The notes beneath the pieces were generated by a model. That model had not been told where the DNA came from. It saw only the letters and a list, made by a program, of their open reading frames with translations, and made no database searches. From Escherichia coli (GTDB lineage: Bacteria > Pseudomonadota > Gammaproteobacteria > Enterobacterales > Enterobacteriaceae), in the NCBI RefSeq assembly GCF_003334765.1, contig NZ_QOWT01000020.1: a stretch of 64,000 nucleotides of DNA; one strand, given 5' to 3'. Positions 22,896 through 23,936 of this stretch are shown here, piece by piece. A program made the position numbers and the translations under genes. How positions within the stretch are numbered: position 1 is the stretch's first letter; each line of letters opens with the position of its first letter.

Positions 22896-23936
22896 TTGAA
22901 CATAGACACTCGCGAAATCACCCTGGAGCCAGCAGACAATGCGCGTCTGTTGAGCCTGTGCGGCCCGTTTGATGACAACATCAAGCAGCTCGAACGCCGT
23001 CTCGGCATCGAGATCAATCGCCGCGATAACCACTTTAAACTGACCGGCCGTCCGATTTGCGTCACCGCTGCGGCAGACATTCTGCGTAGCCTGTATGTCG
23101 ATACTGCCCCGATGCGCGGTCAGATTCAGGATATCGAACCGGAACAGATCCACCTTGCGATTAAAGAAGCGCGGGTACTGGAGCAAAGCGCGGAGAGCGT
23201 GCCGGAGTACGGCAAAGCGGTCAATATCAAAACCAAACGCGGCGTAATTAAGCCGCGCACGCCAAACCAAGCGCAGTACATCGCCAATATTCTCGACCAT
23301 GACATTACCTTCGGCGTTGGCCCGGCGGGTACGGGTAAAACCTACCTGGCAGTGGCTGCGGCAGTTGATGCCCTGGAGCGTCAGGAAATTCGCCGTATTC
23401 TGCTGACTCGTCCGGCAGTAGAAGCCGGTGAGAAACTGGGCTTCCTGCCTGGCGATTTAAGCCAGAAAGTAGACCCGTATCTGCGCCCGCTGTACGACGC
23501 GCTGTTTGAAATGCTGGGCTTTGAGAAAGTCGAGAAACTGATTGAGCGCAACGTTATTGAAGTCGCACCGCTGGCCTATATGCGTGGTCGTACGCTGAAC
23601 GACGCGTTTATCATTCTCGATGAGAGCCAGAACACCACCATCGAACAGATGAAGATGTTCCTGACCCGTATCGGTTTTAACTCAAAAGCGGTTATCACCG
23701 GCGACGTCACACAGATCGACCTGCCGCGTAATACTAAATCAGGCTTACGTCACGCCATCGAAGTGCTGGCCGATGTCGAAGAGATCAGCTTTAACTTCTT
23801 CCACAGCGAAGACGTGGTTCGTCACCCTGTGGTGGCGCGTATCGTTAACGCCTATGAAGCCTGGGAAGAAGCCGAACAAAAACGAAAAGCGGCGCTGGCA
23901 GCAGAACGCAAGCGCGAAGAACAGGAACAAAAATGA
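22896..23936 (+). CDS. ybeZ: PhoH-like ATPase YbeZ
   Basis: ORF 22857..23936; TTG at 22896 gives (M)[14 protein letters not shown], 346 aa; Walker A GPAGTGKT. Confidence 0.9.

Follow-up and report, generated by a model that had tools for sequence, protein, structure and literature searches.

At which codon does translation of ybeZ begin, the TTG at 22896 or the in-frame ATG 39 nt upstream, and are the non-ATG starts and overlapping gene boundaries found around this gene more frequent than in the genome at large? The question was addressed for a window of 64,000 nt, that is, the whole stretch of Escherichia coli DNA analysed here, in which all positions are counted. Whole-window alignment gave 99.96–99.98% identity to two strains, K-12 MG1655, relative to which the window is reversed, and FORC064. 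Of the 5,426 complete genomes of E. coli, 5,425 contain a match to a 6-kb query around ybeZ. Compared with MG1655, the window lacks the IS5 between lnt and gltI, and its metT-leuW-gln tRNA array holds five genes against seven. The curated annotation of K-12 MG1655 and the PGAP annotation of FORC064 were mapped onto window coordinates, and the starts of the coding sequences shared by the two are identical throughout (58/58). All starts and overlaps of the window are already present in public annotation. The preliminary description of this region, as it was worded, restates the annotation of a very well-studied part of the E. coli genome; what it reported is real and correctly interpreted, of average frequency, and already known.

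The ybeZ start codon

We assign 22896–23936 to ybeZ and conclude with high confidence that it is translated from UUG 22896, by ordinary bacterial initiation, and not from the in-frame AUG 39 nt upstream. The features on which this assignment turns are as follows.

22896..23936, plus strand: ybeZ coding sequence, PhoH-like ATPase of 346 aa, with TTG start at 22896–22898 and TGA stop at 23934–23936, as given in both annotations
22885..22891, plus strand: Shine-Dalgarno (SD) sequence AGAGGAA, GAGG core at −10..−7, with a 6-nt spacer to the ybeZ TTG
22857..22859, plus strand: in-frame upstream ATG, discarded as main start; initiation here would extend YbeZ by MFSFRRHTDKRNG, to 359 aa
22749..22781, plus strand: miaB intrinsic terminator upstream of ybeZ, stem 22749–22771 plus T-tract

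The identity of the product follows from comparison with PDB 3B85, which matched YbeZ residues 116–321 with E = 5.5e-80 and thereby locates the PhoH ATPase domain. The PhoH model NF007827 aligned with residues 107–320 at 218 bits, below its equivalog cut-off of 380 bits, and YbeZ is therefore described as PhoH-like and not as PhoH itself. The predicted N-terminus is Met-NIDTREITLEPADNAR from TTG 22896, as opposed to MFSFR... from ATG 22857. It is not readable from solved structures, which comprise only the C-terminal domain of a Corynebacterium homolog (3B85).

Orthologous loci were collected by matching peptide patterns internal to the protein, a procedure free of selection bias on the start codon, and one genome per species was retained, yielding 80 loci, all from Enterobacterales. 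At the codon homologous to 22896, 73 of the 80 have TTG, and ATG occupies the conserved start in none of them (0/80). The remaining seven loci, all from Morganellaceae (Xenorhabdus, Photorhabdus, Proteus, Moellerella and one related metagenome genome), carry a GTG that lies 5–6 codons upstream and follows immediately on an in-frame stop. Among the TTG-bearing loci, an SD core is located at −14..−5 in 71/73. Column conservation across these 73 taxa amounts to 0.89–0.99 for AGAGGA (−11..−6) and 1.0 for the TTG, with values of 0.3–0.7 at −30..−12; moreover, the three-base coding periodicity of conservation begins at the TTG, and −30..−12 is devoid of it. Position +1 is T without exception (73/73), whereas the 84 fourfold-degenerate sites of fully conserved ybeZ codons all vary over the same taxa (mean major-allele frequency 0.58). 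Since fourfold sites do vary, the T of the ybeZ TTG is under selection, even though A or G in its place would still provide a start codon. Within the species, a 61-mer around the TTG has an exact match in 4,631 of ~5,400 complete E. coli genomes, and no exact ATG or GTG variant of this 61-mer was found among them.

Published start-site data were taken from two supplements, Table S2 of INRI-seq (PMC9825163) and Table S1 of the TRAINSPOTTER N-terminomics study (PMC13245402); the Ribo-RET values quoted here are the columns re-tabulated in both. INRI-seq maps retapamulin-stalled initiation complexes on synthetic mRNAs in vitro (PMC9825163). It shows no peak at the TTG codons of ybeZ, rsfS and lipB, and it detects only ~70% of annotated starts (PMC9825163). 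The re-tabulated K-12 Ribo-RET column is negative at all seven non-ATG starts of the window (PMC9825163; see below). The INRI-seq construct for ybeZ begins at −30 and so excludes the ATG at −39 (PMC9825163).

Two other readings of the ybeZ start were considered. The first holds that both sites are used in Escherichia, with a 346-aa proteoform predominating over a minor one of 359 aa. The 13-codon extension is indeed open in E. coli, and Ribo-RET has yielded 6–36 upstream in-frame start sites per strain. Against it, ATG 22857 is without a usable SD, GGTGA abutting it with zero spacer, and is not conserved outside a narrow clade: an in-frame ATG with no stop before the TTG is confined to E. coli, E. 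albertii and a few Citrobacter and Kluyvera. Over the TTG-bearing loci, ATG at −39 is present in only 7/73 and missing from 66/73, in 32/73 the would-be extension is interrupted by a stop in frame within the 39 nt preceding the TTG, and 27/73 offer no alternative start codon upstream at all. A proteoform pair would be expected to show initiation signals and conservation at both in-frame starts, a combination that ybeZ does not display, and the searchable portion of the INRI-seq and TRAINSPOTTER supplementary text does not list ybeZ among alternative start sites. We consider a second proteoform highly improbable.

The second reading, which places the ybeZ start at ATG 22857 (359 aa) and regards the TTG as a convention of annotation, is scarcely credible: this ATG does open the longest ybeZ ORF, and neither the INRI-seq nor the K-12 Ribo-RET column records an initiation footprint at the TTG, but curated and automatic annotation both chose the TTG, the region of the extension is of low conservation without coding periodicity while the SD spaced for the TTG is near-invariant, and the missing ATG, the in-frame stops and the lack of a usable SD weigh against it as they do against the two-proteoform reading.

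Further upstream, a sigma-32-like promoter (CTTGTTT-N13-CCCCATCT) was noted at 22770–22797. As it precedes both candidate starts it does not discriminate between them. It was discarded as a conserved landmark of the transcription start, an exact CCCCAT being found upstream in only 20/80 orthologous loci. A scan for sigma-70 promoters upstream of ybeZ gave nothing. Structure in the 5′ UTR, such as an RNA thermometer, was considered as a cause of the TTG conservation and likewise rejected, the 131-nt leader scoring no better than shuffled sequence (z = +1.29) and the upstream region being poorly conserved. The search for other constraints on the TTG thus yielded none.

Initiation at UUG 22896 can be rationalised in conventional terms. 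With ybeZ as the first gene of the ybeZ-ybeY-corC(ybeX)-lnt operon, the conserved AGAGGAA would position the 30S subunit 6 nt upstream of the start, and fMet-tRNA would pair with the near-cognate UUG by way of a first-position mismatch. Initiation at this UUG would be weaker than at AUG; reporter measurements place GUG and UUG at 10–100% of AUG. The same route would apply to rsfS and lipB (UUG) and to lptE, rlmH, ybeF and crcB (GUG). An SD-positioned 30S subunit, a first-base difference from AUG and an N-terminal Met are shared with canonical GUG/UUG initiation as represented by the lipB TTG, with no difference in kind. The UUG codons of ybeZ and rsfS are presumably used in vivo.

Non-ATG starts in the rest of the window

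The preliminary description had named six non-ATG starts (ybeZ, rsfS, rlmH, lptE, ybeF and crcB), and each of them is exact, with the sequence, the curated K-12 annotation and PGAP in agreement. A seventh, the TTG of lipB at 52797, had been overlooked. Apart from ybeZ, the coding sequences concerned are listed here, with INRI-seq peaks in CPM (PMC9825163).

42889..43470, plus strand: lptE, GTG start; INRI-seq peak 16–36; GTG in 11/11 taxa; SD GGAGG, spacer 4
46039..46356, plus strand: rsfS, TTG start; TTG in 11/11 taxa; conserved SD AGGGGGAA; no in-frame start codon upstream
46360..46827, plus strand: rlmH, GTG start, 3 nt past the rsfS stop; INRI-seq peak 35–46; SD GGAG
52797..53438, plus strand: lipB, TTG start; N-terminal peptide MYQDKILVR; Ribo-RET (BL21) support (PMC13245402, Table S1); SD GGAG
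53697..54650, plus strand: ybeF, GTG start; INRI-seq peak 62–98; model NF008554 aligns with 1–317 of 317; SD GGAG
57137..57520, plus strand: crcB (flc), GTG start; INRI-seq peak 22–38; SD AGGA, spacer 7

The taxa in this list stem from ten loci of 14–22 kb that were obtained with MrdA homologs as anchors and that make up 11 taxa together with E. coli. Their sources are Shimwellia, Serratia, Yersinia, Hafnia, Edwardsiella, Erwinia and Pectobacterium, plus three more with MrdA 88–96% identical to that of E. coli. In several of the ten loci, in-frame stops lie 18–45 nt upstream of the rsfS TTG. Since TIGR00090 aligns from RsfS residue 8 onwards, no internal ATG could be the rsfS start. The start codon of rlmH is GTG in 10/11 taxa and ATG in Pectobacterium. 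For lipB, NF010922 aligns with residues 2–211, and the TTG is retained in all nine relative loci that contain the gene; five of these nine also have an ATG three codons upstream, which probably serves as the lipB start there. Nine of the ten other Enterobacterales loci reach the position of ybeF, and no ortholog of it was found there in any of the nine. The codon homologous to the crcB start was available from six other taxa, where it is GTG in two and ATG in four, that is, the position is conserved and the codon variable.

In all seven genes the conserved coding sequence opens with an in-frame GUG or UUG, with an SD 4–9 nt upstream in every case, and the family models for RsfS, LipB and YbeF reach within 1–8 residues of the N-terminus. 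The INRI-seq peaks at the four GTG starts are reproducible (PMC9825163), and the peptide listed for lipB is TTG-initiated (PMC13245402). These peaks, the peptide and the comparative data, which place the starts of ybeZ, rsfS, lptE and rlmH at the non-ATG codon, support the original proposal that the GTG and TTG codons are genuine starts, and not internal codons of longer ATG-initiated ORFs. That proposal would have been contradicted by N-terminal peptides from the longer forms, and the N-terminomics table contains no window gene with an upstream-extended N-terminus (PMC13245402). The ybfE peptide in it maps to the annotated downstream ATG and not to the upstream one, and the annotated ATG starts represented are those of lipA, mrdA, ybeL, lnt, nagC, nagA, nagE, glnS and fur (PMC13245402). 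Five of the non-ATG genes (ybeZ, rsfS, rlmH, lptE and crcB) are absent from the TRAINSPOTTER table, and of the seven non-ATG starts of the window only that of lipB is represented there by an N-terminal peptide.

Non-ATG starts had also been said to recur in this window. They do occur, but not in excess: 7 of 58 starts (12.1%) equals the genome average, ~88% of annotated E. coli K-12 start sites using ATG and ~12% a non-ATG codon (PMC9825163). The binomial probability of seven or more among 58 is 0.55 at p = 0.12, and 0.27–0.92 across reference frequencies, which include older E. coli genome figures of 83/14/3% for ATG/GTG/TTG. For the three TTG starts among 58 it is 0.25 at p = 0.03, with 0.06–0.47 across reference frequencies. 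Enrichment of non-ATG or TTG starts in the window is ruled out by these tests against published genome frequencies.

The further statement that the longest upstream ATG is the wrong start in at least eleven genes depends on how such an ATG is defined. Only seven K-12 genes (ybfE, uof, ybeZ, ybeQ, leuS, cobC and dacA) have an ATG that precedes the annotated start in frame and in the same ORF, or eight if a PGAP-only 40-aa coding sequence is added. Looser readings do exceed eleven: in 13 genes the start differs from the first ATG in the ORF, and any ATG, GTG or TTG lies upstream in 17. Expressed as the consequence for gene calling, between about a fifth and a quarter of the starts in the window would be mis-called, 13/58 by a first-ATG rule and 17/58 by a longest-ORF rule.

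Persistence of weak start codons

The only addition made by the present analysis is a modest one, namely that the weak codons of ybeZ, rsfS and lptE, and largely that of rlmH, are fixed across Enterobacterales in the loci compared; these are four of the six genes that could be tested. The invariance exceeds neutral expectation, with TTG in 73/73 ybeZ loci against the 0/84 invariant fourfold sites given above, and with rsfS TTG and lptE GTG each in 11/11 taxa against only 2/286 invariant fourfold-degenerate sites in rsfS, rlmH, mrdA and lptE of the same 11-taxon set. From these alignments, the pattern suggests gene-specific selection for weak, limited or tunable initiation, opposed to the trend toward AUG.

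The alternative is that selection is indifferent to which start codon is used, the non-ATG codons having persisted through neutrality or for want of time to be replaced. On the scale of whole genomes, start codons are under weak selection and GUG and UUG tend to switch to AUG (PMC5622118), and crcB, which alternates between GTG and ATG among relatives, conforms to such a picture, so that neutral persistence is plausible for this gene. For ybeZ, rsfS and lptE, where the first base of the start is invariant and fourfold sites are not, the same comparison makes it very unlikely. As an account of the window's non-ATG codons in general, we regard neutral persistence as unlikely.

Selection on the weak codons of ybeZ, rsfS and lptE can be set beside two documented situations. 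Compensation of a weak start codon by a strong SD (Belinky, Rogozin and Koonin 2017, PMC5622118) is matched by these three genes in that each combines a weak codon with a strongly conserved SD and with conserved positions −1 to −3; the same work reports a general drift toward AUG, whereas the weak codon of ybeZ, rsfS and lptE is retained without change over order-level divergence. The second situation is AUU autoregulation of infC (IF3) and the polyamine modulon, in which polyamines stimulate weak start codons such as the cya UUG; the conserved weak codon is shared with these and could, by analogy, render expression sensitive to initiation fidelity or polyamines. The UUG and GUG of ybeZ, rsfS and lptE are canonical start codons, unlike the AUU of infC. 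The rsfS UUG has been considered in connection with the polyamine modulon (PMC10917681); in the abstract of that study rmf, raiA and sra are the only genes given as polyamine-stimulated, from which rsfS would appear to be unaffected by polyamines.

A functional link between the two invariant UUG codons can nevertheless be imagined. YbeZ is the partner and operon-mate of YbeY, a nuclease of 16S rRNA maturation and quality control, and RsfS is the ribosome silencing factor. By analogy with the infC AUU, the UUG codons of ybeZ and rsfS might act as sensors of initiation fidelity in a homeostatic feedback on ribosome quality, a proposal to which we give little credence. UUG initiation would rise under IF3 limitation, or upon accumulation of immature 30S subunits whose discrimination between start codons is relaxed; YbeZ would increase, YbeY would follow through the ATGA junction, and RsfS would increase as well. 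The conservation of the weak codons matters only if a regulatory role is demonstrated.

Overlapping gene boundaries

Five overlaps of 1–32 nt had been listed for the window, ybeZ/ybeY, ybeU/djlC, ybeR/djlB, lptE/holA and dpiB/dpiA, and all five are correct to the nucleotide, at 4, 4, 4, 1 and 32 nt. Three more had escaped attention.

23933..23936, plus strand: ybeZ/ybeY ATGA stop/start overlap, 4 nt; ybeY coding sequence 23933–24400
34860..34863, minus strand: ybeU (upstream)/djlC ATGA overlap, 4 nt; weak INRI-seq peak at djlC
37657..37660, minus strand: ybeR (upstream)/djlB ATGA overlap, 4 nt; INRI-seq peak at djlB
43470, plus strand: lptE/holA 1-nt overlap TGATG, the last lptE base being the first base of the holA ATG
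61182..61213, minus strand: overlap of the dpiB 3′ end with the dpiA 5′ end, 32 nt; no INRI-seq peak at dpiA
5849..5856, plus strand: overlap of the uof leader peptide with fur, 8 nt; previously overlooked
29146, plus strand: gltJ/gltK 1-nt TAATG overlap; previously overlooked
29820, plus strand: gltK/gltL 1-nt overlap of the same type as gltJ/gltK; previously overlooked

Overlaps thus affect 8 of 40 co-directional adjacent pairs, a typical share with nothing enriched. Six of the eight measure 1 nt or 4 nt, lengths that are common throughout the prokaryotes (PMC6728339), and seven belong either to these common types or to the known uof/fur case. The dpiB/dpiA overlap was examined for a shorter dpiA start that would remove it. 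DpiA begins MTAPLTLLIVEDE, and its start must therefore precede the receiver-domain acidic pair; with the receiver-domain motif LLIVEDE directly after the ATG, the sole candidate for a reduced overlap is a TTG at codon 8, which was judged less likely.

The stop/start junctions are well kept among relatives. At ybeZ/ybeY, an RTGA overlap of 4 nt is found in 66/73 orthologous loci and a 1-nt TAATG in 3/73, in total 69/73, and an overlap of 1 or 4 nt between lptE and holA is kept in 10/10 other loci. For ybeY (CAGGAA) and for djlB and djlC (AAGGA), the SD sequence is contained in the 3′-terminal part of the preceding gene. The ybeR/djlB junction is identical in 19 of 20 nt to the paralogous ybeU/djlC junction.

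The 1-nt (TGATG/TAATG) and 4-nt (ATGA) overlaps are standard operon junctions, at which a terminating ribosome may reinitiate and thereby couple translation of the two genes. ATGA and TGATG overlaps are a documented coupling device (PMC6728339), and coupling at uof/fur is a named feature of the annotation. Co-directional overlaps of 1 or 4 nt, an internal SD and conservation across species are shared with the termination-reinitiation systems described by Huber et al. (2019, PMC6728339) and with uof-fur, whereas the 32-nt overlap of dpiB/dpiA is longer than is typical of this class. In vitro, ybeY initiates well unaided. Its ATG gives a peak of 110–210 in INRI-seq, that is, strong initiation on an isolated fragment, so coupling of ybeY to ybeZ is not obligatory. 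In the same in vitro data djlB and djlC also initiate de novo, and no de novo peak was found at holA, gltK, gltL or dpiA. Coupling presumably operates at these stop/start junctions.

The ybeZ/ybeY overlap has been called unusual in the literature, a description contradicted by the window itself, in which other overlaps are of the same kind.

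Non-ATG starts of ybeZ and lipB

The preliminary description had named six non-ATG starts in the window; these are joined by a seventh, which it had overlooked:
52797-53438, lipB CDS with a TTG start.
For this TTG start the N-terminal peptide MYQDKILVR has been published (PMC13245402), the sole such case among the seven. Three codons upstream of the lipB TTG position, an ATG is present in Serratia, Yersinia, Hafnia, Edwardsiella and Pectobacterium, where it probably replaces TTG as the start.

The ybeZ start was followed across 80 orthologous loci, one per sampled Enterobacterales species. 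In the Morganellaceae-type loci (L072, L076, L078, L080, L081, L083 and L084) ybeZ begins with GTG, placed directly behind an in-frame stop, 5-6 codons upstream of the Enterobacteriaceae TTG position and ~15-18 nt before the conserved N-terminus. Thus, the ybeZ start is non-ATG in all 80 sampled orthologs. Upstream of the gene, the window holds a promoter-like element:
22770-22797, sigma-32-like promoter, CTTGTTT-N13-CCCCATCT.
The miaB terminator has its stem at 22749-22771, and its T-tract overlaps the -35 element of this promoter; an exact CCCCAT within 220 nt upstream of ybeZ was found at only 20 of the 80 loci.

Overlapping genes and possible translational coupling

Two of the overlapping gene pairs belong to related modules:
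33412-35567, minus strand, ybeU-djlC module
36233-38364, minus strand, ybeR-djlB module
These are diverged paralogs (59% and 49% protein identity, ~66% at the DNA level). Despite this divergence, the 20 nt preceding the ATG of djlC and djlB match at 19 positions, including the AAGGA Shine–Dalgarno motif and the ATGA overlap. The adjacent Sel1-repeat genes ybeT and ybeQ are likewise paralogs (36%). A longer overlap is seen at dpiA:
60533-61213, minus strand, dpiA, with its ATG 32 nt inside dpiB.
INRI-seq, which maps retapamulin-stalled initiation complexes on synthetic mRNAs (PMC9825163), gave no initiation peak at dpiA and no de novo peaks at holA, gltK and gltL, whereas de novo peaks are present at ybeY, djlB and djlC. 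This difference suggests that dependence on coupling is mixed, applying to some of the overlapped genes only.

Differences from K-12 MG1655 and further annotation points

K-12 MG1655 and FORC064 both have a tRNA array of seven genes, whereas the array at 19362-19844 comprises five, in the order Met, Leu, Gln-ttg, Met, Gln-ctg. Each of the two Gln tRNAs has one copy fewer here, which is consistent with recombination between repeated units. The lnt-gltI gap (~27221-27228) lacks the IS5 element (IS5D/insH3) of K-12 MG1655; apart from this, the window is 99.96% identical to MG1655.

Three further points concern annotation:
10513-10635, plus strand, hypothetical 40-aa CDS, annotated by PGAP only and absent from the curated K-12 annotation
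45165-45170 (cobC, ATGATG) and 38522-38530 (ybeQ, ATGATAATG), closely spaced start ATGs
56257-57044, minus strand, ybeM (deaminated glutathione amidase), frameshifted pseudogene
The 40-aa CDS overlaps the 5' end of nagE by 31 nt on the opposite strand. For both cobC and ybeQ the second ATG is the annotated start, and in cobC the Shine–Dalgarno spacing favours it as the candidate start. In K-12, too, ybeM is a frameshifted pseudogene; related Enterobacterales loci (e.g. L086, L087, L092 and L094) carry an intact CN_hydrolase gene of 262-268 aa at this position.
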